Below, piece after piece: positions 5,344 to 49,429 of a stretch of DNA of 55,033 nucleotides. How positions within the stretch are numbered: the first letter of the stretch is position 1; the number at the start of each line of letters is the position of its first letter. Below the pieces are notes generated by a model. It ran no database searches. It worked only from the letters and a program-made list of their open reading frames with translations, and had not been told where the DNA came from. Origin of the DNA: a virus. The DNA is taken from the UHGV virus genome UHGV-0072939; one strand, 5' to 3'. Both the position numbers and the translations under genes were made by a program.

Positions 5344-5344
5344 A

Positions 5345-7445: not shown

Positions 7446-8845
7446 TGTCTCAGTACCTTCATGGTTACCGGCATAAACGCCGGATGCGGAACGCGCGCTT
7501 CCTGCACCAGTTCATCCGCACGGGCGGCATCCTGATACAGCCGGTTAGCCAGTGTCAGCGCCGGAAGGGGCTGCGCCATCGTGACCTGAATCAGTTCGCT
7601 CAGCCCGGATGCGCGATCGCTCATTGTGGCTAAAAAGGAAGATCTGATGGCGAGCAGACTGCCATACATACCGTCCTCCGCCCGGTCACCGGCCAGCACC
7701 AGCGCCTTATCCAGCTGAACAGAAACCCGCTGCGTTATCGCTTCAGCCTCATCGCGGCTGGTCGGGCTGGCATCAGCCGCTGCGCGGGTCATGGCCCCCG
7801 TGCACAACACAACGATCAGCGTGTTCATGGTCGCGGATATCGCCTTGCTGCTGTCGGATTGCTGGTATTCCGTGCTGATGGCATTAGCCAGTTTTTCCAG
7901 TGCTGAGATCCGGTCATTCACGCTGCCGGCACTGTCAAGAATGGCATTCACAACATCGGCGACACCCTGCACAAAGTCATCCGGGTTGGTTGAGTTATTC
8001 AGATGATCCACGGTATCGGTGATGTTTTTCCGGTCCATCACCGACTGCGCGGTCACCTGGTCGGCAAGCGCCTGAGTGTCCTCCACGTCGGCAGTCGGCG
8101 TATTGCCTGAAACAGCGGAAGAGCTACCACCGACTGGCCCCTTGCTGTAACGGCCATATTGCGTATTTCCAAACGTGGAATTCAGGACGTTACTGAGGTT
8201 TGTGACTTCGCTGATGGTGCTGTCCACCATATTCGTCCAGAACGTGACGGTACCTTTAATGGTGTTGATCGCCTGCGTAACACCGCGGATTTCACCCTTT
8301 ATCCTGGCGAGCGTACTGGCGACCGTCGTGCTCACCAGTTTCAGGTAGTTGGTGTTTACCGTATCGCCTGCGGTGGTACTGTCCGTGACCGCAAATACTT
8401 TAAGGCCTGACTCAATCGCCATCAGGGTGAACTCAAACACTCGGCCATTTTCTGTCGATCCGGAAATACGCAGACCGTTTTCAGGAATAGAAACCGTTAA
8501 TTCGCCGAGCGTCGGGTGGATCAGGGTACCGCTTCCCTTTGCTTCACAGGCGGCGATCAGCGACTGACGCTGGGTAATGGCATCGCCGCCGCCGTAGACC
8601 TGGCTGTTCTGGATAAGGAACCCGCGAATAATAAACCGCCGGGTGGCGCGGCCGATATCTTCAATCCACGCGGTATCACGCCAGGGGTACTCATGCACGG
8701 CCTGACGACGGCCGTGGCTGCCCTCTTCTGCCACAACGGCAAACGGCACGCCGCGAAACGAGCTGGCGCGCAGCTGGCTCTGCCAGTCATCGCTGGCACC
8801 ACCACCCATCAGGGACGTTATTACATCCTGGATAACTGGCATCAC
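7442..8845 (-). CDS. DNA circulation protein N-like (Mu gp43)
   Basis: 467 aa; position immediately downstream of tape measure; recalled family resemblance. Confidence 0.65.
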   Translation of the reverse strand: MMPVIQDVITSLMGGGASDDWQSQLRASSFRGVPFAVVAEEGSHGRRQAVHEYPWRDTAWIEDIGRATRRFIIRGFLIQNSQVYGGGDAITQRQSLIAACEAKGSGTLIHPTLGELTVSIPENGLRISGSTENGRVFEFTLMAIESGLKVFAVTDSTTAGDTVNTNYLKLVSTTVASTLARIKGEIRGVTQAINTIKGTVTFWTNMVDSTISEVTNLSNVLNSTFGNTQYGRYSKGPVGGSSSAVSGNTPTADVEDTQALADQVTAQSVMDRKNITDTVDHLNNSTNPDDFVQGVADVVNAILDSAGSVNDRISALEKLANAISTEYQQSDSSKAISATMNTLIVVLCTGAMTRAAADASPTSRDEAEAITQRVSVQLDKALVLAGDRAEDGMYGSLLAIRSSFLATMSDRASGLSELIQVTMAQPLPALTLANRLYQDAARADELVQEARVPHPAFMPVTMKVLRQ

Positions 8846-8911: not shown

Positions 8912-10717
8912 TCAGTAAGACATGGGCAGCGTGATCCTGCCACCATCCCGGGTAATGTATTCCTTCCGTTCCCCTTTCCCGTCCACCATAGTGATTTCAA
9001 GCTTCATCTTTTGCTCTTCCATGGCACTTTTAAATGAGCGGGTGAGGTTTTCGGTCAGCACCTGCCCCGAGGCGCCCCCCTGCGATGCTGGCTGGATAAT
9101 GCCGGTTCCGGCCGTTCGCTCCGTCACCGGGGCGTCAGAAAAAACATTGTCAGGCGGATTTTCTGCATTAATGATCCGCTGGTAATGTCCAAGTACCGCG
9201 CCGGGATAGGCCTGATTTTCCTGCCCCCACCGGCGGGTGTCGTAACCGCCGTTGTAATATCGAAGCGCCAGCGGAACATTACCGCCCGAATTCTTCAGGT
9301 TCTCGGACAGAATTTGCGCACCTGCCATGATGTTTTGCCGCGGGTCGGTCCAGTCGGTAACGCCGGTCGACTGGAAATTTGACGGCATGATCTGCATCAG
9401 CCCTTTAGCCCCGGCTTTGCTGACTGCCTGCGGGTTACCTCCGGACTCCTGGGTCATTATGGCCTTCAGCAAGCGGGGATCCACACCGTATTGCTTGCCG
9501 GCTTCATTGAGTAGAACGTCATACTGTCCGCCCTGGTTATACGGTACATAGTTATTGCCGCCGACAGCAGGTCGGGTAATGGCAGCCATATCATCCTGCA
9601 GCTGGTTCGCCGTATCCGTCGCCCGGTAATTCGCATCGTAGCGTTTGCTCACGGCATCCGTCATAAACCCGGCATCCACCATCCCGCGCTCGCTGCGGGG
9701 CAGGCTGTTATAGAGTTCCTTGTCACCCTGAATACGGCGCAGTTTGGCCGCGTCCGCGCTGCTGATAAACCCCAGCGCATGCGACAGGCCGGTGAAATCG
9801 CCGTTGGTAAACAGGTCTGTCACGCCCTCGAGGCCGTCTTTCACCGACCCGTCGGAAAGCAGGCCTTTGAACAGCTTATTCTGCGATCGCTGCTTCAGTC
9901 CATCCCATGAGGCGCCCAGTTCGTTCATCGTGCCGTTGATATCGGACAGTTGTTTATTAAGTTCGGGATCGACCGTCAGCCCAAACGTATCGGATTTCGC
10001 CAGCAGGGTTTTCATGCGCTCGCCTTCACGCATCAGCGCCAGCATTTCAGGGGTAAAACCCATCGCATCAGCGACAGATTTCTGCTGCTCTGGTCGCAAC
10101 GTCGGGAACACGCGCGCGATCTCTTCCATGGTTTTGAGCGTATCGACTGAACCATCCTTGTTTTTCTGGATCTGCACACCAATTTGCGACAACGCGCCAA
10201 GGACCTGACCGTTTGCACCGCTGGCCGCTTCCTTCAGCGTTTTTGCCATCCCTTCAATCGATGCATTTGCGCTTTCGCTGTCAGCCCCCAGAATACGCAT
10301 GGCGCCCGCGAGCCGGGTAAAATCATCAACCCGCATACCGGCGTTTTTCGACGCTGTATCCAGGTTATACGCCTCCCGGGAGGCCTCCCGAAAACCGTAG
10401 GCAACCTGCTGAAGGCCATATCCTGCCGCCCCAACAGCACCGAGCGCACCCAGCTTGCCGGAGATTTCCCCCACCATTTTTAGCGGGGGAACCATATCAC
10501 CGATGAACTGCACGTTATCCCGCGCGCTCTTCGACATATTCTCCAGGCGTGAAATAAAACCGTTCAGCCCGTCGACCGTCTCCTGGCCGCCTAACTGGAG
10601 CCCTTCTTTGGTTTTATTCAGTTTCGGTTCCAGATCGCGGATAGCTTCGTCAATCCGGGTTATCGCGTCACTGACCTGATCGCTGGCCACCAGCTCAAAA
10701 TCAAAAGAATTACTCAT
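8912..10717 (-). CDS. tail tape measure protein with C-terminal lytic transglycosylase (SLT) domain
   Basis: 601 aa; C-terminal LLKAIMTQESGGNPQAVSKAGAKGLMQIMPSNF matches the SLT catalytic motif (ES...GLMQ); position after chaperone pair. Confidence 0.8.
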   Translation of the reverse strand: MSNSFDFELVASDQVSDAITRIDEAIRDLEPKLNKTKEGLQLGGQETVDGLNGFISRLENMSKSARDNVQFIGDMVPPLKMVGEISGKLGALGAVGAAGYGLQQVAYGFREASREAYNLDTASKNAGMRVDDFTRLAGAMRILGADSESANASIEGMAKTLKEAASGANGQVLGALSQIGVQIQKNKDGSVDTLKTMEEIARVFPTLRPEQQKSVADAMGFTPEMLALMREGERMKTLLAKSDTFGLTVDPELNKQLSDINGTMNELGASWDGLKQRSQNKLFKGLLSDGSVKDGLEGVTDLFTNGDFTGLSHALGFISSADAAKLRRIQGDKELYNSLPRSERGMVDAGFMTDAVSKRYDANYRATDTANQLQDDMAAITRPAVGGNNYVPYNQGGQYDVLLNEAGKQYGVDPRLLKAIMTQESGGNPQAVSKAGAKGLMQIMPSNFQSTGVTDWTDPRQNIMAGAQILSENLKNSGGNVPLALRYYNGGYDTRRWGQENQAYPGAVLGHYQRIINAENPPDNVFSDAPVTERTAGTGIIQPASQGGASGQVLTENLTRSFKSAMEEQKMKLEITMVDGKGERKEYITRDGGRITLPMSY

Positions 10718-23821: not shown

Positions 23822-24352
23822 TTAATGGTTTTGCAGGGCAGCGTATGCCCTTTGACATGCATCTCCCCTTATTCGGGATTCGTCAGCAATTTCTGCCAGT
23901 CTCTGCGCGCGTTCGTCAGCGCGAGCGTACAACTCGGCGAGCACTCCGGCACCAGGGGTTGTTGCACGGCTTCCGGTGGCAGTGCCGGTATTGCCGGAGG
24001 CGCGACTTTGCTGCAGCTGGCGGGCGTAATCGGCGACCTGCTGGCGCAGGCTGTCAGCGTCAGTACGAGCGTGAGCAGCATCAGCCTGAGCGCGGGTGAG
24101 TTGCTGAGATGCCTGCGCGGCGGCTTTGGCAATACCATTCTGTCTCTCCTGTTCGGTTTGTCTGTTTTTAGCCTGCAGGTCAGCTACCGCCTGTACGTCA
24201 GCAGCATCGCGGGCAGTCCATTTTTCCTGCCAGGCGTTATCAGTGGCTGTAACACCCGCGACATATCGCCAGTGACCAAAGGCCCATAACGACAAAGCCA
24301 CCAGCACGATTAGCGCCAGTGGCTTCCAGTACTTCCCCAGGAGAAGCGTCAC
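23822..24352 (-). CDS. i-spanin Rz-like lysis protein
   Basis: 176 aa; N-terminal TM helix then long Ala/Gln/Arg-rich coiled-coil; ATGA overlap with lysozyme gene. Confidence 0.7.
   Translation of the reverse strand: MTLLLGKYWKPLALIVLVALSLWAFGHWRYVAGVTATDNAWQEKWTARDAADVQAVADLQAKNRQTEQERQNGIAKAAAQASQQLTRAQADAAHARTDADSLRQQVADYARQLQQSRASGNTGTATGSRATTPGAGVLAELYARADERAQRLAEIADESRIRGDACQRAYAALQNH
23869..24081 (-). CDS. o-spanin Rz1-like lipoprotein embedded in Rz in the +1 frame
   Basis: 70 aa from ATG 24081; lipobox LTAC, Pro-rich mature region. Confidence 0.6.
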   Translation of the reverse strand: MLLTLVLTLTACASRSPITPASCSKVAPPAIPALPPEAVQQPLVPECSPSCTLALTNARRDWQKLLTNPE

Positions 24353-24789
24353 GACAAGAACAGAGCGCGCTCTGCCTCACGCCGTTTGACCAGGCCATTA
24401 AGCACTTTACCGCCGGCTTTATTCCATTTCGGAAACTCATCAGCTGCGCCGCGGTAATCGCCAGCGTTCAGCTTCTTCAGCAGCGTGGAGCTTTCAAGTG
24501 CCCCGACGCCGATGTTATATGCGAAGCCCACCAGCGCATCGAACTGGTTCTGGTTCAGCACCACCCTGACCAGACGATTCACGCCGTTTACGTACTGCAC
24601 TACACCGCTCACCAGCAGGTTATCGGCAGTAGCCTGTGTAATAATCATTCCACTACCGACCGGAACACCACCTACAGGCTGCGTCCATCCATAGCCGATG
24701 GTCCATACGCCTACACTGTCCTGATAGGCCGACAGGCGACAGTCCTCGAATTGCTTGATAAGGGAGAGACCCTTTCCACTGATTTGCAT
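24349..24789 (-). CDS. endolysin, glycoside hydrolase family 24 lysozyme
   Basis: 146 aa from ATG 24789 (TAATG overlap with upstream gene); MQISGKGLSLIKQFEDCRLSAYQD and GYGWT motifs typical of T4/P22-type lysozymes. Confidence 0.85.
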   Translation of the reverse strand: MQISGKGLSLIKQFEDCRLSAYQDSVGVWTIGYGWTQPVGGVPVGSGMIITQATADNLLVSGVVQYVNGVNRLVRVVLNQNQFDALVGFAYNIGVGALESSTLLKKLNAGDYRGAADEFPKWNKAGGKVLNGLVKRREAERALFLS

Positions 24790-25064
24790 TACGTTGCCCT
24801 CACAAATTTTGCCAGATTGCCGCCAGCAAGCCACACGGCAATGCATACCGTCACATTGATCATGAATTCGCCGGGGTCAACCTGCATATAATCGCCGTGG
24901 ATGATCCGGAACGCGGTATACCCGGCGGAAAGAATAATCAGGTAGGCAAACACCGAGACGCCCAAGCGGTGAGCTTTTCCGGCTTTATTGAAAAACAGCA
25001 GCCGGAACATAATCAGCAGGCATATCATCGCGTTTGCATGAAGCATCAGGTATTGCCATGTCAT
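24789..25064 (-). CDS. small membrane protein, holin/antiholin-like
   Basis: 91 aa with 2-3 hydrophobic helices, between holin candidate and endolysin. Confidence 0.5.
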   Translation of the reverse strand: MTWQYLMLHANAMICLLIMFRLLFFNKAGKAHRLGVSVFAYLIILSAGYTAFRIIHGDYMQVDPGEFMINVTVCIAVWLAGGNLAKFVRAT

Positions 25065-25459
25065 TCATCACCTCCATCCAGCCCAGGGAGTTTCCCTTTT
25101 TTGGATCTGGCCAGAATGCGAAGCAGAATAGCGACAGAAATGGAGGCAGCAACCAATGCACCGATATTCGGAGATACCTCAATAGTCACCGGCGGTGTTA
25201 ATACGCTCAATGCGGCATTGATCACGGCAGCCAGAATCTTCGCCATCGGTCCTGAGAAGGAAACCCCACCCAGGAACGAGATAACAGCGAATATTGCCTG
25301 TTTCCATATCTGGTGGGGATCAGAGGTCAACACATACAGTGCTGCACCACTCAGAGAGAAAACCATGACTCCTGGTGTCGCCTCCGGAAACCAGGTTGCT
25401 AGCGTCGCACCTACAAACCCGGCAGTTACGCCACCAGCTACAGTTACAGGATCGGACAT
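25061..25459 (-). CDS. putative holin (membrane protein)
   Basis: 132 aa, hydrophobic helices, charged C-terminus (RSKKGKLPGLDGGDE); first gene of lysis cassette. Confidence 0.55.
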   Translation of the reverse strand: MSDPVTVAGGVTAGFVGATLATWFPEATPGVMVFSLSGAALYVLTSDPHQIWKQAIFAVISFLGGVSFSGPMAKILAAVINAALSVLTPPVTIEVSPNIGALVAASISVAILLRILARSKKGKLPGLDGGDE

Positions 25460-25607: not shown

Positions 25608-26660
25608 TTATGTCTGGTTGAGCGCCTGCAGCTCGCTGACCGTCTGAATAAATCGCTCGGTCTCAAGCTCTACGCCGATCGCCCGGCGCCCAAGCTCCAT
25701 TGCCGCTTTCACGGTGGAACCCGAGCCCATAAAAAAATCGGCTACCGTGTCGCCCGGCCTGCTGCTGGCGCTGATAATCTGCCTGAGCATGTCAGCAGGT
25801 TTTTCGCAGGGATGCTTCCCCGGGTAAAACTGCACAGGCTTGTGGGTCCATACGTCGGTATACGGAACCGAGACGGATACAGAGAAACAGCGCCGGAGAG
25901 TTTTGTATTCCTCCAACAGCGCTGAATATTTCCGGTTGAGCGACTGGTATGTGCCCACCAGCTGGTGGTGTGGATGTTCAAGTTCCTGCCGCTGGTGCTT
26001 TTCTGCCGCGATGCGGGTGAACAGCTGCTGCAGCGTCAGGTAATCATTCTCGTTCGGTAACTGCCACTGGCTGGCGCTAAACCAGTGCGAGACCATATTC
26101 TTTTTGCCCGTGGCGTCGGCGATAGCTTTGCTCGTTACGCCAAGTGCCTCGCGGGCGTTGCGGAAATAGTCAATCAGCGGCGTCATGACATGCTGCTTGA
26201 GCTCGTTGCTTTTGCGGTCGTAACCGTCATCCTTCTCTTTGTATGGTCCCGTGTGATGTTCAGCAAAAAGAATACGCTCGGTTGCCGGGAAGTAAGCGCG
26301 AAGGCTTTCTTTATTACAGCCATTCCAGCGGCCAGAGGGCTTTGCCCAGATAATATGATTCAGGACGTTGAACCGCGCCCGCATCATGATTTCAATATCA
26401 GATGCCAGTCGATGCCCGGAGAACAGATACAGGCAGCCGGCTGGTTTAAGCACTCGCCAGAATTCCGCCAGACATCCGTCAAGCCAGAGCAGGTAGTCCT
26501 CATCCCCTTTCCACTGGTTGTCCCATCCGTCCGGTTTCACTTTGAAGTAAGGCGGATCGGTAACAATCAGGTCAATGGAGTTGTCCGGGAGAGAAGCGAT
26601 GAAATGCAGACAGTCAGCGTTGATTAACTCAACACTGTTTATTTTTACAGTATTTTTCAT
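25608..26660 (-). CDS. orphan DNA methyltransferase, amino-methyltransferase (N6-adenine or N4-cytosine) with DPPY motif
   Basis: 350 aa; DPPY near N-terminus and FFMGSGST (AdoMet-binding) near C-terminus, i.e. beta-class motif order; no adjacent restriction endonuclease gene. Confidence 0.8.
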   Translation of the reverse strand: MKNTVKINSVELINADCLHFIASLPDNSIDLIVTDPPYFKVKPDGWDNQWKGDEDYLLWLDGCLAEFWRVLKPAGCLYLFSGHRLASDIEIMMRARFNVLNHIIWAKPSGRWNGCNKESLRAYFPATERILFAEHHTGPYKEKDDGYDRKSNELKQHVMTPLIDYFRNAREALGVTSKAIADATGKKNMVSHWFSASQWQLPNENDYLTLQQLFTRIAAEKHQRQELEHPHHQLVGTYQSLNRKYSALLEEYKTLRRCFSVSVSVPYTDVWTHKPVQFYPGKHPCEKPADMLRQIISASSRPGDTVADFFMGSGSTVKAAMELGRRAIGVELETERFIQTVSELQALNQT

Positions 26661-27054
26661 AGATCAGTAAGCGTAACTTTGATAGGCTCACTTCGCTTTT
26701 GCGCTAAAGCAATGGGCCCTGGTTAGCTTGTGACCTGAAAGCATGAGCTGATGGCTGGCCGGGTGCGCTAACACCCACCAGCCGCCCATTTTCACAGCAT
26801 CTGAAATCCCACCAATGCAGGATCTGTAATTGTTGCCGCTATAGGTCGTGCGGCGCACCATCTCATTTTTAGGCTACTTACGCGTTAAACCGGGCGCCAA
26901 CCGTAACTCAGTGATGCATTACGCCACCTTTCCCTCACTACGTCGCCGTGGGAACCCGACCGGATTAACACCGTCGTCACGCAGCCTGAACCCAATCAGG
27001 CATCCAATATGAGGTCTGTCCGTTTAGCGGATCATAGTTGCATCCTCCAGAAAG

Positions 27055-27077
27055 CAAAAAACCCCGCCGGGGCGAGG
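27055..27077 (-). terminator. hairpin flanked by A6 on the plus strand (T6 on the minus strand); candidate intrinsic terminator for leftward transcripts (tR'-like)
   Basis: sequence AAAAAACCCCGCCGGGGCGAGGTTT read directly; short GC stem with one mismatch. Confidence 0.35.
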
Positions 27078-27211
27078 TTTAGAAATCGTTTAAGTCCGTG
27101 ACGTAGTAACCACTCTTAACACGTTACTACACTTTTTGCGGACCGCATTAATGTTTTTTATCATTAAAACAGGTATTTTATGGAAAAAAATCAAACCATA
27201 GTGAGCAAATA

Positions 27212-28081
27212 GTGACCAATACTACTTCTTTTCAGATCTTCTATGATGCAGAAGATACTGAATTGGCACAGCATAAAATTGATGCAAAAACACTTAGCAT
27301 TTCCATAGGTTCTATGGCTGATTTGATTTCAGCCGCTGATAAACGGCTTAACGACGGTCAACAAACTGTGAAGTTGATGGTTACAAACCCGGCGGAGGCT
27401 GGCTCTCTCGGCGTATCCTATACGATGATGGAGCTTGTTCCGCATGCAATCAATGTTGCGAAAGTGATCGGATTGACAGGGTTAGCTGGCGCCGCAATTG
27501 GTGCACCTGCATTATCATTAATTCGACAGTTGGGAAGTAAGAAAGTCATTTCCATCACGAAACGAGCTGGTACAGACCAATCCGTTCTTGAGCTCGAAGG
27601 TGAAGAAATTGTTTGTCATGATTCTGTAGCCAAGCTAGTGACTGATCCAGAGATTAGGAATGCTTTAGTGAACGTAGTGCGAGCACCTTTAGACGGGAAA
27701 GAAGGCGCAGTGTTCAAAGTTCTGAATGAAGACGGTGTTGAAGTCGTGCGCTTGGAAGGTGAAGAAACTGAGGAAATAAAACCGCTTCCTAGGGGCACTT
27801 TGCTGGAAAAAGAAGAATCAGTGGAAGAAGTAAACGTAAGATTCGTCCAAATAAACTTCGAAGGAACAAAAGGTTGGAGGATTGAGTACCTCGGAGAGGA
27901 ACACGCTGTTTCGTTTGAGGATCAACTTTTTATACATCAAGTCCAAAATGGGATTGTTAGTTTCACCAAAGAAGATTTGTTTGTAGTTGACCTCAAAACA
28001 ACAAAAACTTTCACTGCACGTAATGCTTCAACCAAGTATGCTATAACCAGAGTTAAGCGAAAACGCCCTGCTGAGGCTTGA
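27212..28081 (+). CDS. hypothetical protein (289 aa), first gene of AT-rich three-gene operon
   Basis: long ORF; GTG at 27212 is the first in-frame start after a stop; a 10-codon upstream ORF (ATG 27180) ends TAG overlapping this GTG; no family recognised. Confidence 0.5.
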   Translation: MTNTTSFQIFYDAEDTELAQHKIDAKTLSISIGSMADLISAADKRLNDGQQTVKLMVTNPAEAGSLGVSYTMMELVPHAINVAKVIGLTGLAGAAIGAPALSLIRQLGSKKVISITKRAGTDQSVLELEGEEIVCHDSVAKLVTDPEIRNALVNVVRAPLDGKEGAVFKVLNEDGVEVVRLEGEETEEIKPLPRGTLLEKEESVEEVNVRFVQINFEGTKGWRIEYLGEEHAVSFEDQLFIHQVQNGIVSFTKEDLFVVDLKTTKTFTARNASTKYAITRVKRKRPAEA

Positions 28082-28137
28082 TTAACGTGGCATTAAACTT
28101 GCAAATAGCGCAACTGATCTTCTGGATAGGAGTGGTT

Positions 28138-28347
28138 ATGATCATTCCTACCTTTAGTCGTTTCTGCTATTCGGCATCTGCTTTGCTATGGCGTCGATTG
28201 TTTCCTACCAGGACCTTTGAGTTCCGGTATCACGATGAAGATACTGGTACAACTAAAACACTCATTGTTAAGGTACCAAGAAAAAACGGGAAAATGCTTA
28301 CCAGTCTTATTGATGAGGCTATTTCGGAGAATTCAAAACAAAAATGA
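28138..28347 (+). CDS. hypothetical small protein (69 aa)
   Basis: ATG 28138 with GGAG SD 7 nt upstream; stop TGA overlaps next ATG (ATGA). Confidence 0.45.
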   Translation: MIIPTFSRFCYSASALLWRRLFPTRTFEFRYHDEDTGTTKTLIVKVPRKNGKMLTSLIDEAISENSKQK

Positions 28348-28766
28348 GTTCTCAAAGTAAAGGGTTAAGTACTGGAAAAGCGACACTTTCCACTGGAGGT
28401 TGGGGAGCAATACTCAGCGTTTTAGTTGGTGCTGTTCTTACCGACCCCAACAGTGTGTGGAGGACGGTTGCTTATGCCCTAGTGCCAGGTGTTGCTGCTG
28501 TCCTTACCTACGTGATGAATTGGTTCATTTCTCGGCATGGGTTTGAATCACCAGAAGATGCAGCTAAACGAGCGAAGTGTAAACGCGATTTAGCAGAGAT
28601 CGAAAAACAGCTACGTTCAGAGCATTTAACCTCTGAAATTGAATCTAGGCTGATGCAGGCAAAGGCCAAGACAATTGAAATACTCGTTTCTATTGGCAGC
28701 GACTCAATCCTTGAGGCCTCATCACGTTCGAGCCAACTACCAGATACTGCCGGGCCCAAAGGCTGA
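28344..28766 (+). CDS. hypothetical membrane protein (140 aa, two predicted TM helices, charged C-terminal half)
   Basis: hydrophobic segments GGWGAILSVLVGAVL and VAYALVPGVAAVLTYVMNWFI; translationally coupled to upstream gene. Confidence 0.55.
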   Translation: MSSQSKGLSTGKATLSTGGWGAILSVLVGAVLTDPNSVWRTVAYALVPGVAAVLTYVMNWFISRHGFESPEDAAKRAKCKRDLAEIEKQLRSEHLTSEIESRLMQAKAKTIEILVSIGSDSILEASSRSSQLPDTAGPKG

Positions 28767-28788
28767 CCGGCAGTCTTGAACTTAACAA

Positions 28789-29154
28789 TCAATTATCCAT
28801 TTCAAGTCGAATATCAAGCATAGCCAAACATCCGTCTATAAATCCTTCTGCCATCTGCATCTCAATTCGGATCAATTTTTCGTCTTTTTTGCGCATCTTT
28901 GCAATCTTGCGTTTTGAAATGCCATAAAGGTAATGAGCTACCAGAAGAGAATGCTCATATGGCTTTCTTTTCTTTAATTGAGCCAAACACCCTTCAATGA
29001 TGAGAGCATCATCATCGGTACAGGACAATCGCGATTTACTACTCTGTGGCAAGAGCCCCTTAAACCCTGCCGCAATTGGTGAATAATCAACGCCAGAGTT
29101 GTCACTGGCCGCCCATCCTCCCCAGCATTCCAGGACTTTTTGCATATCACGCAT
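28789..29154 (-). CDS. late-gene antitermination protein Q-like
   Basis: 121 aa; position upstream of lysis genes; recalled Q-family resemblance. Confidence 0.6.
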   Translation of the reverse strand: MRDMQKVLECWGGWAASDNSGVDYSPIAAGFKGLLPQSSKSRLSCTDDDALIIEGCLAQLKKRKPYEHSLLVAHYLYGISKRKIAKMRKKDEKLIRIEMQMAEGFIDGCLAMLDIRLEMDN

Positions 29155-29169
29155 TTATGTTCTCCATAC

Positions 29170-30231
29170 TTACACTTTAACAATTACGCCGATCGCCAGC
29201 GCCCGATCCAGAACGCGAAACAGCAGCTCCAGCTGCGTGCCGTGCTTCTTCTCGAACGCCGCTACATCGGCATGCAACTCGTCGTGGCACTCTCTGCACA
29301 GAGGGATCACGAAGAGGTCGTGGGCTTTTGTAGCTGTACCGCCCATACCATGCCCGATGATATGGTGCGGGTCGTCTGCCGGACGGCGGCAACCTTCGCA
29401 GGGCTGAACCTTTACCCAGCGGGTGTATTTCTCGTTCTCCCAGCGGCGGCGCTTCGGTCGCAGCATGAATGATTCCGGCGATTCCGGATCGATCCTCAGC
29501 GCCAGCACCGCGGGCTGCTCCTGCACCTCCTGCGGGTTTGTGCTGCTCCTGCACTGTTTTACTGCTCCTGCGGTTGCAGCCTTCTCCTGCAGGATGCTGG
29601 TGGCCGGCGGCATTGGGACAATGTCGCTTTCCCGGTAAAACGGCAGAAACGGCTCATCGGGCATCTGCAGCGCGCGGCGGGCCATCGTTTCAGGGATTGC
29701 ACCGGCGATACCTGCACAGACCGCCCACCAGCACAGCTCACCCAGCGACAGCTCCCGCTCTTTGTTGAAACCCAGCGCCGCGAGCACAGTATCAATCACC
29801 CAGGCGACAACGTTACGGCGCGCCAGCTCCGCCAGCTGCTCTGTCGTCTGCTGGCGCAACTCGTTATCGCAGTGCCAGCACAGCACCATCGCACCGGGCG
29901 GGTGGCGCATAGCAACCAGCTCCTTATGGTGGTAGCCGGAGTGCTGATACTGGCACTGATGCACACGGTGCAGCAGCCAGAACTCGAGACCGGGCAATCC
30001 GCCGGCGGCACGCATAACCCGCTCGTCGGTGAAGAAGGAAACAAGAAGCGGATCATCGGCCAGAGGCTGCCGGGCATCGGGAACACGGCCTGACGGAAGC
30101 GCGGCCATGCTCCTGGGCTCGGATTCCACCAGCACACGGCCGTCACTGAACAGGCGCATCAGGTCTTTACCCGGCTTCAGCAGCACCAGGCCGAGGCGCG
30201 GTACCGTTTCGGCTGTCAACAATGCTCTCAC
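29170..30231 (-). CDS. DUF968-like phage protein with Cys/His-rich C-terminal region
   Basis: 353 aa; C-terminal CEGCRRPADDPHHIIGHGMGGTATKAHDLFVIPLCRECHDELH resembles DUF968 of lambdoid nin regions. Confidence 0.55.
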   Translation of the reverse strand: MRALLTAETVPRLGLVLLKPGKDLMRLFSDGRVLVESEPRSMAALPSGRVPDARQPLADDPLLVSFFTDERVMRAAGGLPGLEFWLLHRVHQCQYQHSGYHHKELVAMRHPPGAMVLCWHCDNELRQQTTEQLAELARRNVVAWVIDTVLAALGFNKERELSLGELCWWAVCAGIAGAIPETMARRALQMPDEPFLPFYRESDIVPMPPATSILQEKAATAGAVKQCRSSTNPQEVQEQPAVLALRIDPESPESFMLRPKRRRWENEKYTRWVKVQPCEGCRRPADDPHHIIGHGMGGTATKAHDLFVIPLCRECHDELHADVAAFEKKHGTQLELLFRVLDRALAIGVIVKV

Positions 30232-30943: not shown

Positions 30944-31330
30944 TCAGGCGGCTGCACCCGCCGGTTCGTATTGGCTGATCGTTATCTCAACCCTGCCTTT
31001 CGTCACCACTGGCCCCCACTCCACCAGCATGCGTTTTACCTGGCTGTCATCCTCCCACACGCCAGCATGTGTCAGCGCGTCAAACAGCGCTTTGTTGTAG
31101 TTGTCCAGATCCCGGCGGCGCGCGTCCGGCGGATACAGGGTGATTTCGACTGCAGCAGGCGCTGTTGATGGCTTCGGCAGCCTGCGCAGCTGCTCAATGA
31201 TCGCCGCGCAGGCCGCGCTCTGGTATTTGCGGCCGTCAGCACTGATAAGATGGCGCCCGGCCAGCGGCCCCTTGTTAGGGGCGCGCCAGTAGGTGTTAAC
31301 GCTCGGAGGAAACGGCAGCACCAGCTTCAT
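30944..31330 (-). CDS. rusA: Holliday junction resolvase RusA-like
   Basis: about 128 aa from ATG 31330 (MKLVLPFPPSVN...), characteristic RusA N-terminus and DxDN-containing core. Confidence 0.8.
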   Translation of the reverse strand: MKLVLPFPPSVNTYWRAPNKGPLAGRHLISADGRKYQSAACAAIIEQLRRLPKPSTAPAAVEITLYPPDARRRDLDNYNKALFDALTHAGVWEDDSQVKRMLVEWGPVVTKGRVEITISQYEPAGAAA

Positions 31331-33366
31331 GCCACCTCCCGCTGCGGATCCGCGCACATCTCAGGTAAGTTTGCCTCCACCAGCGCGCGGGCGAATGGTG
31401 GCGGGACGGCGTTGCCGCAGCGCGCGACCTGCTTATCCTTCGCGTAGCGGTTGCCCCGGTAGTCCTGATCGATAACGTAGCCATCCGGGAAGCCCTGGGC
31501 TTTGTACAACTCATGGGGCTGCAACATACGCATGCCGATATCAACAATCTGGTACTTAACACCCTCGATCGTCACCAGCCATTCGTCTTCGCTTTCCCCG
31601 CAGTAGGTTTCCAGGAATGTCCGAACCTCCCCTACATGCTGGCCGCCGGCGGTGATGGTTGGCATCGGTTCGTCCAGGCGCTGCCCGTCGCGGCATGTTC
31701 CCCTTAATTTGATTAGATGCGACGTCACCATCGCGCTATCAGCTTTTGTAGTCAGGGTTTGAATAGGCTCACTTACATCCCTAGGACGGCTCTGCCCGGC
31801 ACGACCGCCTACACCTACGACCTGTGCACTTACAAGTGCGTGGTGATCGACCGTCGTCACGGAGTGTGCTGGCTCATCCAGACCCACGCCCGGGCCCGTA
31901 TAATTCCCGCCGTAGTGCTTCGCCAGGAATGCGCTCACCGTTGCAAACTTATTGCCACCAGCGGTAACTGTGCCCAACGGGGTATCGATTTTCAGCACGT
32001 GCGGCTGCTGCCCCGGACGCTCACCGTAGCCCATCTGTATCAGGGTTGGTGTAACCAACTGGGATTTACCGCCACCACCCGCTGTGATGGTCGCACTCGG
32101 CTCATCCGCCCGGTGGCCGATACTGGCGCCGAACTGGCGGGCAATCACTGGCGTAACCAGGCAGGCGCGGGATTGCTTCAGGATAGTGTGGGCAGGCTTA
32201 TTCAGCGCGCGCGGCTTCGCCTGGTATTCGCTGCCGCCGTTGCCAGCCAGGAATGGTGTCAGCGCCGCCTCAACAACGCCTAGGGCATGACCATTCCCGC
32301 CCGGACGCGCCGATGTGCCAGCGGTCACCGTAGGAACCGGTTCGGTAACGGGTTGCCCGGTTGCGCCGGTGCGGAATTTAGTCAGGTGCGGTACCGCTAT
32401 CGCGTAGCCGTGGGTTTTGGTGATGGTCTGCAGCGGCGCGCCCAGCTCCTGACCACGAAAACAGTCATAGCTACCTTTCGTCGTGGTGTGGTTACATTTC
32501 ACGATGAACGGCGAGGCGCTCTCGATGACAAACCGCTGGATACCGCGCGCAATACGCTTCAGGGTATTTTCTGCCAGGGGCTTTTTGCGATCGAAGATAG
32601 AAAGCGCCGGGATATTCCAGTCGATACACTCCGCCGCGGTGCGCCACGGCGCCAGCCTGCCGCTCTGCACTTCCAGTGATTTCGGATCCCCGTGGGTCGG
32701 TTCAGGCCAGTGAATGGCTTTACCATCGCAGCGCATGACCATAAAGAAACGGCGACGGATTGTCGGCGCGCCATAGTCGCACGCGCGCAGCTCGCGATAA
32801 TCGACGTCATAGCCGAGCCCGGCAACCAGCTGTTGCGCCTGCCCGCTGCCAGGTTCAATAGAGAGAAATTCGCAGACCTCAGCCAGCGCCGGATGATCTG
32901 CCGGGATCCCCGTTGACAGCATAGCGACAAACGCCGTGAACGTTTCGCCAGCACGCGCAGGATCCGGGCGCATTTCGTCAGCCAGCAGCGGCCCCCACGT
33001 TTTAAACTCTTCGACGTTCTCCAGCATCATTACGCGTGGTCGCTTCGCCAGCGCCCAGCGGATAACTACCCACGCCAGCCCGCGGATTTCCTTCTTCACC
33101 GGCTTCGCGCCTTTCGCCTTTGAAAAATGGCGGCAGTCGGGGCTGAACCATGCCAGGCCAACAGGATGCGCGCCAGTGGCAGCAACCGGATCCACATCAA
33201 ACACCGATTCGCAGTAATGCAGCGTGTCGGGGTGGTTGGTCTTGTGCATGGCGATGGCGTTTTCGTCGTGGTTGATGGCAATATCCACGCTGCGCCCTAT
33301 GGCGAGTTCGATCCCGGTAGAGGCACCGCCGCCGCCGGCGAAGTTATCAACGATAATTTCACGCAC
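31327..33366 (-). CDS. DNA cytosine-5 methyltransferase with long C-terminal extension
   Basis: 679 aa; motif I FAGGGG, motif IV-like SPDCRHFS, motif VI ENV (MLENVEEF). Confidence 0.8.
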   Translation of the reverse strand: MREIIVDNFAGGGGASTGIELAIGRSVDIAINHDENAIAMHKTNHPDTLHYCESVFDVDPVAATGAHPVGLAWFSPDCRHFSKAKGAKPVKKEIRGLAWVVIRWALAKRPRVMMLENVEEFKTWGPLLADEMRPDPARAGETFTAFVAMLSTGIPADHPALAEVCEFLSIEPGSGQAQQLVAGLGYDVDYRELRACDYGAPTIRRRFFMVMRCDGKAIHWPEPTHGDPKSLEVQSGRLAPWRTAAECIDWNIPALSIFDRKKPLAENTLKRIARGIQRFVIESASPFIVKCNHTTTKGSYDCFRGQELGAPLQTITKTHGYAIAVPHLTKFRTGATGQPVTEPVPTVTAGTSARPGGNGHALGVVEAALTPFLAGNGGSEYQAKPRALNKPAHTILKQSRACLVTPVIARQFGASIGHRADEPSATITAGGGGKSQLVTPTLIQMGYGERPGQQPHVLKIDTPLGTVTAGGNKFATVSAFLAKHYGGNYTGPGVGLDEPAHSVTTVDHHALVSAQVVGVGGRAGQSRPRDVSEPIQTLTTKADSAMVTSHLIKLRGTCRDGQRLDEPMPTITAGGQHVGEVRTFLETYCGESEDEWLVTIEGVKYQIVDIGMRMLQPHELYKAQGFPDGYVIDQDYRGNRYAKDKQVARCGNAVPPPFARALVEANLPEMCADPQREVA

Positions 33367-36277: not shown

Positions 36278-36348
36278 CACAAGGTAACAAAAGGTACATT
36301 AAATAGCAAACAACAGTTACCATCAAAAGAGGTAACATTGGTTACATG
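36278..36348. promoter_or_regulatory. operator-like AGGTA direct-repeat pairs in the cro/cI intergenic region (OR-like)
   Basis: AAGGTAACAAAAGGTACATT and GAGGTAACATTGGTTACATG read directly; same unit recurs downstream of cI. Confidence 0.45.
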
Positions 36349-37005
36349 AAAACAGAGATGAAAGACCGTATTCGTTCGCGTCGAGTCCAGCTCGATATGA
36401 CTCAGCTTACCCTTGCCAAAAAGCTTGGGGTCAGTCGCGTGTCTGTAACGAAATGGGAGAATGGAACAACGAAGCCGGATGGTGAGAATTTACACCAACT
36501 TGCTGGTGTACTTCAGGTAACCCCGGAATGGATTCTCTATGGCAAAGGAGATGCTGACGTTGATGATATCAAATTAGTCCCCTTCCTTAAGCCGCCAACA
36601 GCAGTGCCTATTATATCAGCCGTTCAGGCTGGTTTATGGACAGAAACCTACGCCAGTTCAAGGCTTACAGACGTGATTGCATGGACACAAACTACAGCTA
36701 ATGTATCTGATGAGGTTTTCGGGTTAGTGGTCCGCGGAGAGTCAATGACTAACCCTCATGGATTGCCATCAATTCCAGAAGGTTCCATTGTTATCGTTGA
36801 ACCACATTTCGGGCAAATTGATGATCTTTACGGGAAAATAGTCGTTGCCACACTGGAAGGCTCTACCGAAGCGACTGTAAAAAAATTAGTGTGGGATAGC
36901 CCATTCGCCTATCTCATGCCACTTAACCCAGCTTTCAAGCCTATCCAAATTGACGGAAACTGCCGAATTGTCGGCAAAGTCGTCCAAATAACCCAGAACA
37001 TTTAA
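36346..37005 (+). CDS. CI-like prophage repressor (HTH plus S24 peptidase domain)
   Basis: 219 aa; N-terminal HTH (LTQLTLAKKLGVSRVSVTKWENG), C-terminal GESM...K (VVRGESMTNP, KKL) LexA-type autocleavage domain. Confidence 0.85.
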   Translation: MKTEMKDRIRSRRVQLDMTQLTLAKKLGVSRVSVTKWENGTTKPDGENLHQLAGVLQVTPEWILYGKGDADVDDIKLVPFLKPPTAVPIISAVQAGLWTETYASSRLTDVIAWTQTTANVSDEVFGLVVRGESMTNPHGLPSIPEGSIVIVEPHFGQIDDLYGKIVVATLEGSTEATVKKLVWDSPFAYLMPLNPAFKPIQIDGNCRIVGKVVQITQNI

Positions 37006-42839: not shown

Positions 42840-43045
42840 ATCTTGAATGCGTACCCATATCAACTTACTGCCGTGACTCCGGCGAGACCGTAGAAGCTGT
42901 TAATAAACGGATACAAAGGGGATTATGGCAGGAAGGGGTCCATATATTAAAGATCGATGGCGTAAAAGAGCGCTGGATTGATTTAACTGAGGTCACGAAA
43001 TGGGCGAGAAAAAACAAGGATCCTTACAGCTCCCACGCGGTATAA
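42836..43045 (+). CDS. excisionase-like protein
   Basis: 69 aa immediately upstream of and overlapping the integrase gene. Confidence 0.5.
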   Translation: MNLECVPISTYCRDSGETVEAVNKRIQRGLWQEGVHILKIDGVKERWIDLTEVTKWARKNKDPYSSHAV

Positions 43046-44175
43046 CCGCGCGCCATCATAAGAACGGCTCAACACTTATTATCACGTTCACATATAAAGG
43101 GGTTCTATGCCGGGAACCCCTTTCCCGTATCGAGCTGAATCCAAAGGGTATAAAATATGCAGAACGCCTCCTGGGAGAGGTTCAGAACAGAATTGCGGAG
43201 GGTGATTTCGATTATGCCAAATACTTCCCAAAATCTAAGAAGTTGGATATTTTTGGGAAAGTTAACCGGACAAAAAACATCAAGTCTTATCTCGATGAAT
43301 ATCTGGAGATCTGCGCAAATCGAAACTTATCGCCATCGACAATTGGAGGGTATGAAAAATGCCTCTCAGCTCTGTCTGATTTACATAAACTACACGTCGC
43401 CGAGCTTACACCGGCAGTATTGAAAAACTGGATCGCCAGCCGGAAAACAAAGCTTAAAACGATACGAAACAACCTCTCATTTTTGCGTAGCGCAATCGAT
43501 GAGGCAGTGACTGATGGGCTGTTGACGATAAACCCGGTTACGCTTGTCAGCGCCAGCCGGTACCACGTGATCGACAGCACGCCGAACCCCGACGATTACG
43601 AGGTGGATCCGTTCACACCTGCAGAGGCCAGCGCCATTTACATGCACTGCAGGTTTCAGGAATGGGAAAACCTGTTCCGCTTTGCATTTAACACCGGGAT
43701 GCGTAGTTCTGAACTGTGCGCGTTGCGCTGGCCTGATATCGACTTTATCGAGAATACTGCTCACGTTCAGGCAGCCAGCGTTGTCGGTGTGCTGAAGGGT
43801 ACCAAGACAAAAGCTGGTACCCGTAAAGTCGAGCTGAATAGCGATGCGCTGTCGGCGCTGCAGGCGCAAAAGCCATTCACCTTTATGAAGAGCGATTTCA
43901 TCTTCAGCGATCCTAAAACAGAGAAACCATGGGCAAACGCTGATGCGATTCGAAAAAAGGCCTGGGTCCCCACGTTGAAGAAAGCAGGAGTTCGGTACCG
44001 AAACCCATATCAAACACGCCATACGTTCGCTACGCGCCACATCAGCCAAGGCGTTAACCTTTTCTGGTTGGCCGGGCAAATGGGGCACAAAGGACCGGAA
44101 ATGTTGTTCCGTCACTATGGTTCCTACCTGGCTGCTTATGATGGGAAAACGGCAATTGAAGCGAGGAAATTTTGA
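43000..44175 (+). CDS. tyrosine integrase (lambda Int family)
   Basis: 391 aa; C-terminal catalytic region with R...HTFATRH...Y pattern (RHTFATRH, HYGSY). Confidence 0.9.
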   Translation: MGEKKQGSLQLPRGITARHHKNGSTLIITFTYKGVLCREPLSRIELNPKGIKYAERLLGEVQNRIAEGDFDYAKYFPKSKKLDIFGKVNRTKNIKSYLDEYLEICANRNLSPSTIGGYEKCLSALSDLHKLHVAELTPAVLKNWIASRKTKLKTIRNNLSFLRSAIDEAVTDGLLTINPVTLVSASRYHVIDSTPNPDDYEVDPFTPAEASAIYMHCRFQEWENLFRFAFNTGMRSSELCALRWPDIDFIENTAHVQAASVVGVLKGTKTKAGTRKVELNSDALSALQAQKPFTFMKSDFIFSDPKTEKPWANADAIRKKAWVPTLKKAGVRYRNPYQTRHTFATRHISQGVNLFWLAGQMGHKGPEMLFRHYGSYLAAYDGKTAIEARKF

Positions 44176-44479: not shown

Positions 44480-47400
44480 TCAGAACGACCAGTTCACACC
44501 AGCTACCGCGTTCCACGGGGATTCCACACCGGCACTATGGCTATACCCCACCCCAAGATGCCCGCTTAACGTACTGCTGAATGAGGCTTTAATACCTGCC
44601 TGGTATATTCCACGTCTGCCCGACAAATAATTGACGAAATTACCGTCACTATTCACTTTCACCCGGTTATCATCGACAAATTCTTTGCGCACAGCCGCCT
44701 TCAGCCACGGCTCAACTTCCATACCGTTCCCCAGACGCATGTTGTAACTCAGCGTTGCGCCCAGTTCACGATATATACTGCGGGTATCGACTGATTTCGA
44801 TTTCATGCCATTGGATAAATGATATTCGGGGTTATCAGCGGTGAACCCCGTTAACGATGCATACGGCGTCAGGTTCCAGTTACCATCGGTAAATCGCATC
44901 CCGGTTTCAATGTGACCGCCCAGCCCGTTGCTGTGGTAACTGCCATTGGCGGCTCCACCGCTGCTCATTTTACCTGCTACGTTACTTTTAAAACGGTTCA
45001 GCTTCACGACACCGTCCAGATAGAAACCACTTTCATGTTCCCAACTGGCATAGCCGCCCAGAGAATAACTGCCCACACTGCCATGTCCTCCGCGATCAAA
45101 ACCGATATGTGAATGGGAATAGCCCATAAAAGCGCCTAGCGTGGTAATTCCTTCAGGAATATCATTACGGCTGTCGATCCCCACTGTCATTCCGGTCAGC
45201 GTCTGCTCAAACCCGGCACCCGCATCGGTGGTGACATTATTACGGGTGTTATACGTCGCCCCCCAGACATTATTGTTGTGTGGACTCGCTTTCATTATGT
45301 TCAACCGCTCGCGAATACTGTTTAGCTCAGCATCAAATACCAACGGTAATGTTGCTGCCATATTGAGTACGGCTGCCGTAGAAGGCGTAATGCGTTTCTC
45401 CGGAACGGGTGTCGGCGTTGGATCGGGAGTAGGGTCTGGTTTTGGATTTGGGTCTGGCTTTGGATCGGGTTTTGGGTCTGGCTTTGGATTTGGGATGGGG
45501 TCCGGGTTGGGTTTGACATCATTGGTCAGGTTCCAGTTGCTGTTGCCGTCACTTTTCAGGACATACTCATAGGTCCCAAGATCAACGAAACCGCCGGTAT
45601 TGCCCAGCGTAAACGAAGCATCCCCTCCCCCTGTTTTCACCAGCGTCATCGCGTCGTCAGACTGTGGGCTGACGCCGGTATCCTGAACAAAGATTTTAAA
45701 ATTACCAGTGGCGTTGTTGTTGACGACCAGTTGATCGCCCCGGGAGCCTGCAACGTTGGTATGCAGGTAGAAATTACCGCTACCGGAAAGTTCATTGGTT
45801 GTCAGCGTATTGTAGATACCGTTAGTTGTGGCAGGCGCTGCTGTTTGTGCTGACAAATAAACATCACCGTCGTTGAGTAGCAAACTGTTTACTCTATATT
45901 CGCAGTTGCTGGTACCTGCACAGGAATTATTGCTGTTAAGCCAGACACTGCCCCGGCTGGCAGCCGTCAGGTCGGCAAGCGTGGTATCGACGCCATTTCC
46001 CAGAGTCAATGTCGCGCTATCGGTAATCCGGACCGCCCCTTCGAGTTTAACTGGCGTAACATTATCCCGTGGCGTCATTAACGACAGGCTTCCTGTCGCG
46101 CCACTGACCGATGCATCCGCCAGCGTACCTGCGTAGACGATTGCCGTACCGCCAGCGACCTGGAGATCTTCTGCCCGGGCCAGAGCCTGAAACTCATCTT
46201 TTGACCGCCCAAGGGTATATTGCCCGCCAGAGTTAACCTTTGTGGCGGAGTCCTGACCCAGGTTTTGCATTGCCCCACCCTTGCCAACCGTGGAGTCGCG
46301 AGCTTCGGTACCTGCTAATACCAATAAATTACCGCCATTTTCCAGCAACATATTAGTCGCTAAATTGCCGGAAATGGAAAAAGTACCGTACTGGTGAGTA
46401 CCGCTGATTTCAATACCGTTAGCCGTGCTCGTCTGGAGAGCGGCACCGCTGTTCTGGACGATATCTGTCGCTTTGCCATTATCGTTGACTGTCAGCGTAC
46501 CGCCTTCATTGATCTTTGTTTTTATTGCCTCTCCGTTAGCTGAAACTGTTTGTATTCCGCCGTCGTTAATTGTTGTCTCATTCGCCACACCCTCGACAAT
46601 TTGTTCACCGCCGGTGAGCGTCGTGCCTGTCGCAGTGGCTTTTGTTTTGACGATCTCCCGTCCGCCCATATTGACCTGTGTTTTGTCAGAAGAGGTGTCT
46701 GACTCCACGGTTAACACGCCGCCATTTGCCAGCAGGATATTGTTCGCCGCACCCTGCTCGATGCTGAACGCGACGCCATCCGCGCGTGTTCCTGTGACCC
46801 GCGTCGCCCTGGTGGTTGCAACCAAAGCGCCCTGGCTACTCTGCTGTATCCCCGTTGCGCTGCCTTTCTCCCGCACATCGAGTGTGCCGCCGTCATTAAG
46901 CACCGAGTTTTCAGCCAGACCGCCCTCATTAACTACCTGTGAACCCCCATTAATAATGGAACCTTCCGCTGTCCCGTTTGCCATAATTTGTTGTAGGCCA
47001 GAGACGATATCGGTATTGATTGCCTTACCATAATTCTGAACGGTTTGCGTGCCACCATTGATGTGTGTTTTCTCTGTTGACCCACCATCAACAATTTGTT
47101 CACCACTTTCGATATTTGCTTCAGTGGCTAAACCATATACCGTTTGCTTGCCACCTTTGATATTTGCTTTATCAGAAGTGGCACTGGCATATATTGTTTG
47201 GGTGCCAGCACTATTGAGTACAGTGCCAACATCTTTTCCATAAACATCCATTTTGCCGTTGGCATTAATAATCGTGTCAACTGCGCGGGAACCAGTGACG
47301 ACTGTTAATGAGCCAGCGTTTTCCAGCACTACATTTTTAGCTTCTGAATTCCTGATGTAGAAAGCATCACCATAACTGTTGGTTCCTTCGATAAGTGTTC

Positions 47401-49060: not shown

Positions 49061-49429
49061 AAATTTCATCCTCTGAAAAGTGAATACTGAGTAGCGTTTA
49101 AGCGACCTTAGCTTTGCTGCAACATCAGCCCACAGGCACCAGACCAGGGGATTCATCCTGAAGAGACAGCGCAAGTGTATTGTGTTCACCGCTCATCAAA
49201 GACATCATGATGAAATGATGATATTCCGCATAAGAATGAGGCATTTTTTAAACGCAGTGCGCTGAAGTGTGGTTGGATAAAAAAGTCAATCCATTCAGGA
49301 AATACGGGCGTATTCTTTTCTTTCGACAATGAGGCCGTTGGCAAAATAAAATGATTTACATAATCGTTTCTGATGAATATCTTCTGCTCACATAAAAATC
49401 ACACAATAACTTTGAGATCGCAGATTGTT

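Follow-up and report, generated by a model that had tools for sequence, protein, structure and literature searches.

In this study, a 55,033-nucleotide stretch of virus DNA (UHGV virus genome UHGV-0072939; "the window" below) was analyzed, with a three-gene operon at 27212–28766 as the main subject. As judged from sequence comparison, the operon is a self-contained, horizontally mobile accessory module. Its carrier is a lambdoid prophage of a Citrobacter-like host. The operon occupies the gap between the stop codon of the antiterminator gene Q and a conserved Q-linked block. From the prophages compared, this gap is a variable cargo site for backward-facing genes in lambdoid prophages with a Q of the PF06530 type. 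The chance that the module protects the lysogen from other phages, by superinfection exclusion or abortive infection, is put at about even. The family of gene 1 was already a catalogued candidate; this study adds its two membrane partners, a corrected start for gene 2, the precise point of insertion and the general cargo site.

The three genes lie in the window as follows.

27212–28081, plus strand: gene 1, an open reading frame (ORF) of 289 amino acids with a GTG start.
28087–28347, plus strand: gene 2, about 86 amino acids, with a revised GTG start (TTG 28078 or TTG 28099 is still possible).
28344–28766, plus strand: gene 3, 140 amino acids, its start overlapping the gene 2 stop (ATGA).

A first-pass annotation, made from the letters and ORFs of the window, had described these plus-strand genes, and its observations as a whole were partly confirmed. 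The three ORFs were present at 27212–28081, 28078/28138–28347 and 28344–28766, as was the ATGA overlap of the last two. The reported direction was also correct, opposed to Q (28789–29154, minus strand; PF06530, 2e-53) and to the lysis genes. Gene 1 showed 99% identity to a Citrobacter freundii protein. Comparison with the Escherichia coli and Tatumella copies gave ratios of nonsynonymous to synonymous substitution (dN/dS) of 0.03–0.04 for gene 1, 0.06 for gene 2 and 0.04 for gene 3, with a range of 0.03–0.07 over all three genes at a dS that is above 1 and saturated. All three genes are under strong purifying selection.

The conservation of the gene order was investigated in 79 loci, a set weighted to enterobacterial relatives. 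Homologues of genes 2 and 3 were detected with hidden Markov models (HMMs) directly 3′ of gene 1 and on the same strand in 75 of these loci, and the stop and start codons within the units usually overlap. An order of about 290, 70–93 and 117–143 amino acids recurs in eight sampled lineages, down to about 25% identity. The recurring features are one N-terminal transmembrane (TM) helix in gene 2 and, in gene 3, hydrophobic helices followed by a charged helical region. The three-gene order was found in the following settings.

Klebsiella and Serratia prophages: 55–59% identity.
Logan contigs: 35% identity, with an integrase and an S24 peptidase alongside.
IMG/VR loci: 33–36% identity.
A Mu-like phage (L070): directly upstream of the holin, in the same direction.
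Contigs with Rha/REP genes.
Pseudomonas: megaplasmid pBM413 and chromosomal copies.
Marine prophages (L082–L084): small ORFs missed by the HMMs, with membrane ORFs of the right size present 3′ of gene 1.

In E. coli, the unit was present in 31 of 5426 genomes, at about 79% nucleotide identity and with the same neighbors. A copy in Tatumella ptyseos at 92% identity is a single locus from a narrow-alignment scan of genome contigs. The Pseudomonas megaplasmids with the unit are 400–500 kb in size. Also in Pseudomonas, the unit adjoins a transposase of the IS6100 type and lies between a type I restriction–modification (R-M) system and an AAA_15/DUF4276 pair. In the marine prophage L082, the unit is near a cI-like repressor. 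In L065, it has the lysis genes on one side and the terminase on the other, a position reported for Tai defence genes in phi80-like phages (PMC11364771). Searches of 50,697 phage records with the operon (megablast) and with gene 1, gene 3 and the distant family member P0120 (tblastn) gave no match. Since the unit moves between varied sites and is missing from most relatives of its carriers, it is better described as accessory cargo than as a structural or lysis component.

A variation of the unit was seen in relatives of 35% identity (L007 and L008). In these, genes for a 288-residue protein with N-terminal hydrophobic stretches and a 163-residue protein with one N-terminal TM helix border the unit and share its strand; in L007 they are at 5122–5988 and 7579–8070. 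Neither had a Pfam match. These loci may represent an extended five-gene variant.

No known family had been recognized in gene 1 by the first-pass annotation, which proved to be incorrect. Gene 1 matched PADLOC model PDC-S42 (PDLC05015) over residues 4–287 of 289 (2e-31) and is a full-length member of it. It also matched NCBIfam NF053583 over model positions 1–292 (6e-60, 203.1 bits with a cut-off of 60) and phrog_3243 (2.8e-63). A Pfam scan of gene 1 at E ≤ 1 gave 0 families. A profile search against 1.84 billion cluster representatives at 50% identity gave 1849 relatives at E ≤ 1e-3, with 678 of them at E ≤ 1e-10, and almost all had a length of 285–310 residues and a full-length match. The family is widespread, occurring in enterobacterial prophages, Pseudomonas megaplasmids and marine phages. 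PDC-S42 was matched by all 73 of the diverse family members that were aligned. The Pfam domain DUF7946 was matched by 29 of the 73 over the N-terminal 180 residues or so (E ≤ 0.1), mostly under the Pfam cut-off; P0223 (34.9 bits) was the sole individually scanned member above it. DUF7946 is thus matched by relatives of gene 1 and not by the window protein. The title of NF053583 is "LAPAL motif-containing putative phage structural protein". At the LAPAL position, the window protein has GAPAL (residues 98–102), and the motif varies in the family (xALSL, SVLEI and others). A literature search on PDC-S42, the LAPAL motif, phrog_3243, NF053583, the WP accessions and DUF7946 found no paper.

Gene 1 encodes a soluble 289-residue protein. 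Its AlphaFold2 model has three domains, with a predicted local distance difference test score (pLDDT) of 83 and a predicted TM-score (pTM) of 0.72. A hydrophobic segment rich in Gly and Ala is present at about residues 78–108, where the 19-residue Kyte–Doolittle window reaches a maximum of 1.74 (family median 1.57). In the model, the C-terminal domain (residues 198–285) has the order beta-beta-beta-alpha-beta-beta and is similar to an oligonucleotide/oligosaccharide-binding (OB) fold. Residues W222 and F240 are invariant across the 73 diverse members, and F211 is nearly so. H21, S65 and R149 likewise count among the invariant or nearly invariant positions. A Foldseek search of the model against viral models gave two significant matches. 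One was a siphovirus DUF6575 protein (E 3e-8, 295 columns, TM-score 0.34, identity 12%), and the other was a Mycobacterium phage protein (E 7e-8, 92 columns). DUF6575 is a domain of one validated E. coli PD defence system (Vassallo et al. 2022, PMC9519451). The likeness of gene 1 to DUF6575 was seen with Foldseek, and the window protein matched neither the DUF6575 nor the DUF7946 model at E ≤ 1; it is a lead rather than a placement.

Gene 2 had been described as 69 residues from ATG 28138. An N-terminal membrane helix aligns across 16 homologues, and in the window it is encoded partly upstream of this codon. The helix is conserved in homologues to about 15% identity (Klebsiella, Serratia, Pseudomonas and metagenomic phages), with the consensus Q..Q...W.GV.....P.F.RF.YAAS.LLWR.LFPTR. 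Because the conserved helix lies upstream of ATG 28138, the start of gene 2 is most likely GTG 28087, which has GAGG 10 nt upstream and gives a protein of 86 residues. The layout is one helix, then RRLFPTR, then a small domain of about 50 residues. Gene 2 is thus predicted to be a single-pass membrane protein of about 86 residues with a small cytoplasmic beta/alpha domain. The purifying selection (dN/dS 0.06) indicates that gene 2 is real, although the Prokaryotic Genome Annotation Pipeline (PGAP) leaves the E. coli copy unannotated. In loci L001 and L002, RefSeq/PGAP calls nothing from the LAPAL protein to the 140-residue protein, where the copy lies (8995–9258 of each).

For gene 3, two hydrophobic helices and a charged C-terminal half had been proposed, and hydropathy and the AlphaFold2 model agreed on both. 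An alignment of 18 homologues was used. The TM helices are at about residues 14–32 and 41–63, separated by a short loop and followed by a basic, charged helical hairpin; the model (pLDDT 71) has helices at 11–31, 38–65, 70–90 and 97–129. The helical hairpin is predicted to be cytoplasmic, and the basic residues after the second helix suggest that both ends of the protein are cytoplasmic. A fold search with the gene 3 model found no match. A profile search with gene 3 of a set of 5.8 billion proteins returned unnamed hypothetical proteins only. Genes 2 and 3 had nothing significant in Pfam, PADLOC, PHROGs or NCBIfam. The description of the system as "undescribed" was overstated, as the large protein was already in PADLOC, NCBIfam and PHROGs. 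PDC-S42 carries an "S" label, which we take to mean a single-gene candidate in PADLOC. In contrast to this single-gene listing, the family member is the first gene of a three-gene operon here and in seven other sampled lineages. If the operon is active, PDC-S42 would become a defined three-component system.

The insertion site was defined by three elements around the operon.

28789–29154, minus strand: antiterminator gene Q (PF06530, 2.2e-53; G+C content 0.429, G+C content at third codon positions (GC3) 0.40), converging on gene 3.
27088–27175, minus strand: conserved Q-linked block, non-coding, the left edge of the cargo slot and putative pR′/qut.
27059–27080, minus strand: intrinsic terminator, putative tR′, with a stem of 9 pairs (5 of them G-C) and a T-run.

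The Q-linked block has the core ...ATTAATGCGGTCCGCAAAAA-N12-GTTAAGAGTGGTTACT... and is better conserved than the surrounding genes in Citrobacter, E. coli, Klebsiella and Serratia. It was found in 2120 of 5426 complete E. coli genomes. The terminator is directly past the block on the late strand, and its position was kept in all compared loci. In the cargo-free L012, the Q stop codon is followed at once by the block and then by the same terminator. From their positions and established lambdoid biology, the block would be the Q-dependent late promoter and Q-utilization region (pR′/qut), and the terminator would be tR′. The −35 and −10 hexamers of this putative promoter could not be placed by eye within the conserved block. 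The operon, with a leader of about 50 bp specific to it, is thus placed between Q and the putative target of Q itself. Other E. coli prophages with this type of Q carry different cargo, always directed against Q. The following cargo was found in the slot in other loci.

L013, also L065: a KAP NTPase matching PDC-S20, with weaker matches to PifA and QatA models.
L074: a protein of 117 residues.
L075: PDC-M53A and PDC-M53B.
L076: a pair of 87 and 242 residues.
L077: a pair of 343 and 179 residues without an assigned family, in an O157:H7 Stx2 prophage.
L078: a protein of 339 residues.

In the sequences read (window, L001, L013 and L077), every cargo is closed by a hairpin of its own on the side of the Q stop. 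This anatomy (from the Q stop to the block, backward, with an own hairpin) provides a simple rule for mining cargo in thousands of E. coli prophages, the pair in L077 being one example. We suggest that slot cargo could also affect the expression of Q and of late genes such as stx by converging transcription.

The base composition of the site was also compared. The operon had a G+C content of 0.439 and a GC3 of 0.36–0.39; the 10-kb flanks had a G+C content of about 0.56, and the neighboring methyltransferase and DUF968 genes had a GC3 of 0.65–0.73. The earlier statement that the block is richer in A+T than its flanks was consistent with these values, but Q has a similarly low G+C content (0.429), and the operon ranks no lower than the 13th percentile for G+C among windows of the same size in the 55-kb stretch. 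The foreign-looking block is therefore Q together with the operon. The DUF968/HNH gene beside Q (29170–30231) has a G+C content of 0.62 and a GC3 of 0.73. Since Q and the operon share a low G+C content that this neighbor does not have, Q, the block and the cargo look like one jointly acquired mosaic segment.

A DNA methyltransferase next to the operon had been considered a possible partner. Among the large genes of the window's late operon it comes first, and it lies downstream of the terminator. Its place in E. coli is unchanged from one slot cargo to the next, and it is therefore not a partner. The first gene past the putative tR′, before the methyltransferase, is an ORF of 57 residues (26688–26861, minus strand). 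E. coli prophages have a hypothetical protein of about 65 residues (e.g., WP_001317671) at this position.

Several observations point to a defence function: the PDC-S42 match of gene 1, a hotspot that also harbors other candidates, the occurrence in an R-M island and on plasmids, the strand of the repressor, the precedent of validated systems in hotspots, and the success of about half of such candidates. The unit of the relatives is inside an island of type I R-M and AAA_15/DUF4276 genes, and the slot elsewhere holds PDC-S20 and PDC-M53, in a sample that is small and partly circular. The operon shares its strand with the S24 repressor gene and is opposite to all lytic genes of the window. Of eight randomly chosen candidates (seven PADLOC PDCs and HEC-01), four were protective when tested (10.1101/2024.09.26.614923). 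A precedent for the architecture is the hotspot of the P2-like phage AC1, where a system of a cytoplasmic TIR protein and two TM proteins has validated anti-phage activity and the TM proteins are the proposed effectors (Rousset et al. 2022, PMC9122126). The interpretation given by the first-pass annotation as a whole was partly supported. Its reading of the operon as a moron and defence candidate gained from the PDC-S42 match, the variable slot and the R-M island and megaplasmids; "undescribed", the Rex parallel beyond size and the methyltransferase partner were not upheld.

We infer that the module defends the lysogen, that its proteins divide into a sensor and an effector, and that its action damages the membrane. 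Genes 2 and 3 would anchor gene 1 to the inner membrane, or gene 1 would associate with it directly, and gene 1 would act as the infection sensor. Gene 2, with one TM helix, and gene 3, with a two-helix hairpin and a cytoplasmic helical hairpin, would form the membrane effector. Once triggered, the effector would leak ions or block DNA entry, stopping the invader. This wiring of the three genes is held with less confidence than the defence function itself.

The following points weigh against the defence reading. PADLOC PDC entries are candidates picked by genomic association, so the hotspot argument is partly circular. A literature search brought up no experiment on the gene 1 family. Library and fold searches gave no recognizable sensor, enzyme or toxin domain in the three proteins. 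There was no convincing lysogen promoter in any lineage scanned; a hexamer scan over 14 lineages gave no positionally conserved sigma-70 promoter. The unit is co-directional with late or lysis genes in two phage types. In addition, a distant subclade of gene 1 (P0223, P0175, P0216 and relatives; 300–318 residues) occurs without genes 2 and 3, at L081 1293–2177, L089 6001–6924 and L090 977–1897. One of its members lies between a Mu-F-like head gene and a gene for a 609-residue capsid fusion, the usual position of a scaffold or protease.

Another member of this subclade is on an element with a CRI replication initiator. The solo subclade may explain the "structural protein" label of NCBIfam, or may point to an origin of gene 1 as a head protein.

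The most specific form of the defence reading joins two claims. In the first, the operon would be a new membrane-coupled anti-phage system, in which a subunit of 290 residues without a relative of solved fold, derived from or mimicking a head-module protein, detects capsid or DNA and signals to a membrane pair of one and two helices. In the second, the gap between Q and the late promoter of lambdoid prophages of the PF06530 type, including an O157:H7 Stx2 prophage, would be a so-far undescribed defence hotspot of backward-facing genes. The joint claim is less likely than not.

Among the other explanations, the best supported is defence with the roles reversed or without killing, which is possible but rather unlikely. 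The membrane pair would sense the envelope or injection, and the OB-like domain of gene 1 would bind nucleic acid or a virion protein of the invader, so that entry, replication or assembly is blocked, in a manner that we would presume to be like Kiwa or Sie. The predicted strand and helix order of residues 198–285 may be compatible with such binding, as are the invariant W222 and F240 and the nearly invariant F211, and the distant solo relative among head genes hints at a head-protein origin or affinity. However, the structure comparison does not say which domain aligns, and gene 1 has no nuclease or ATPase domain.

A non-defence accessory function is improbable; the module would then be a stabilizer of the addiction or toxin–antitoxin (TA) kind, or an envelope factor of lysogenic conversion. 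Small membrane proteins are common toxins, the small genes overlap and are apparently translationally coupled, and the unit occurs on several kinds of mobile element (prophages, megaplasmids and islands flanked by insertion sequences). The addiction form is opposed by the lack of a TA family match in Pfam or NCBIfam and by the multi-domain protein of 289 residues in a three-gene unit, which is unusual for TA. The unit is also associated with R-M and defence candidates, not with replication or partition genes. A gtrABC-like cluster for O-antigen modification was rejected, with no glycosyltransferase domain found.

Slightly less probable again is an accessory to the phage's own lysis, as a set of holin-like or antiholin proteins that acts in lysis timing or lysis inhibition. 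Gene 3 is similar to class II holins and pinholins in its two N-terminal TM helices and charged C-terminus, and the unit is beside lysis cassettes in lambdoid, Mu-like and L065-type phages, co-directional with them in the last two. The PHROG holin matches of E 0.17–0.73 would agree with this but are not significant, and there was no Pfam match. Gene 3 differs from class II holins in having twice the usual length, with its long helical hairpin, and in its location, which is not in the late operon and includes plasmids. Q lies immediately 3′ of the unit in 61 of the 79 loci and is encoded on the other strand, so that the unit faces the late genes; in the window and L001, it is upstream of the putative late promoter and outside the late operon. 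Moreover, a separate holin pair and lysozyme are encoded in the window, copies of the unit on megaplasmids and in an R-M island have no phage genes near them, and the tblastn searches with gene 1 and P0120 found nothing in the 50,697 sequenced phage records.

That gene 1 is a virion or head-assembly protein is very improbable: this is what the title of NF053583 proposes, and a distant DUF7946-positive relative is located between Mu-F-like and capsid-fusion genes, but gene 1 is outside the late operon and faces it, nearly always has two membrane proteins alongside, occurs on megaplasmids and in an R-M island, and is absent from most prophages with the same Q (31 E. coli genomes with the unit versus 2120 with the Q-linked block, of 5426). 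The "structural protein" label, unsupported by gene context, is probably wrong. Two annotations are thus corrected, this label and the gene 2 missed by PGAP in E. coli.

The defence reading was further considered against known systems. RexA and RexB had been cited for their comparable sizes. The sizes are indeed alike, with a soluble protein of about 280–290 residues and a membrane protein of about 140 residues in both systems, and both are prophage-borne. A cI-like repressor is also beside some relatives of the module. Rex acts through loss of membrane potential, and the same output may be presumed for the module. However, no homology was found: hhalign of gene 1 with RexA gave a probability of 0.3%, and the best BLASTP hit of gene 3 with RexB had an E of 7.3 over 6 residues. 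Homology to Rex was therefore rejected. RexAB has two genes, whereas the module has three, and RexB has 4 TM helices, whereas gene 3 has 2. Rex is in the lambda immunity region; the module fills the interval from Q to the late promoter, at a distance of about 7.6 kb from the cI-like gene (36346–37005), and with its three genes it does not have the two-gene layout co-transcribed with cI.

The AC1 TIR system likewise has three genes in a variable prophage hotspot and, like the module, consists of one cytoplasmic and two small TM proteins. The likeness is in architecture only, as gene 1 has no TIR or other signaling domain (Pfam, E ≤ 1) and genes 2 and 3 have no PADLOC match.

The elements proposed for the expression of the operon were investigated. 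Two of them were located as follows.

27181–27212, plus strand: an upstream ORF (uORF) of 10 codons, read from the sequence, its TAG overlapping the GTG of gene 1.
28746–28774, strand not assigned (arms 28746–28753 and 28767–28774): a hairpin with an 8-bp stem that spans the gene 3 stop, between the converging gene 3 and Q.

The promoter proposed upstream, TTGCGG-17-TATCAT, was not supported. It scored 8 of 12, it was missed by the sigma-70 scan, and its −10 hexamer is not conserved in relatives. The proposed −35 hexamer sits within the Q-associated block, which prophages without the operon also carry. The scan of 26500–29300 gave 0 sites at the threshold, with 3.9 expected from shuffled sequence. 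Expression of the operon in the lysogen is presumed.

The uORF exists but is not conserved among relatives. E. coli L001 keeps it, there starting at GTG, but it has been lost in close relatives such as L014 and L033, among them the 92%-identical Tatumella copy. Since it occurs in the nearest relatives only, it is probably not a conserved regulatory feature. The 8-bp inverted repeat also exists, and E. coli L001 keeps a stem of 7 bp, but it has no T-tract and was not called by the terminator scan. Rather than a canonical intrinsic terminator, it is probably an element that ends transcripts from both directions or stabilizes RNA. An Rfam scan of 22–32 kb found no RNA family.

The lambdoid prophage spans about 1.5–44.2 kb of the window. 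Its other landmarks are as follows.

24349–24846: lysozyme.
24789–25459: holin pair.
25608–26660, minus strand: N6/N4 methyltransferase of the late operon (PADLOC MTase_II, 4e-145).
31327–33366, minus strand: early-region protein of 679 residues whose N-terminal part is a C5-cytosine methylase domain.
36346–37005, plus strand: S24/HTH cI-like repressor.
43000–44175: integrase.

The two DNA methyltransferases of the prophage have no recognized partner nuclease and probably serve in self-protection against restriction. Just outside the integrase, an autotransporter adhesin of the AIDA/pertactin type with 1569 residues is encoded at 44480–49189 (minus strand). The stretch at about 50000–54600 is very AT-rich, with a G+C content of 0.33–0.38; it contains a DUF5508 gene (49972–50763), and a tRNA-Met gene (52096–52171) is nearby. 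Its ORFs at 53082–53768 and 53781–54572 had no Pfam match. This stretch may be another horizontally acquired islet.

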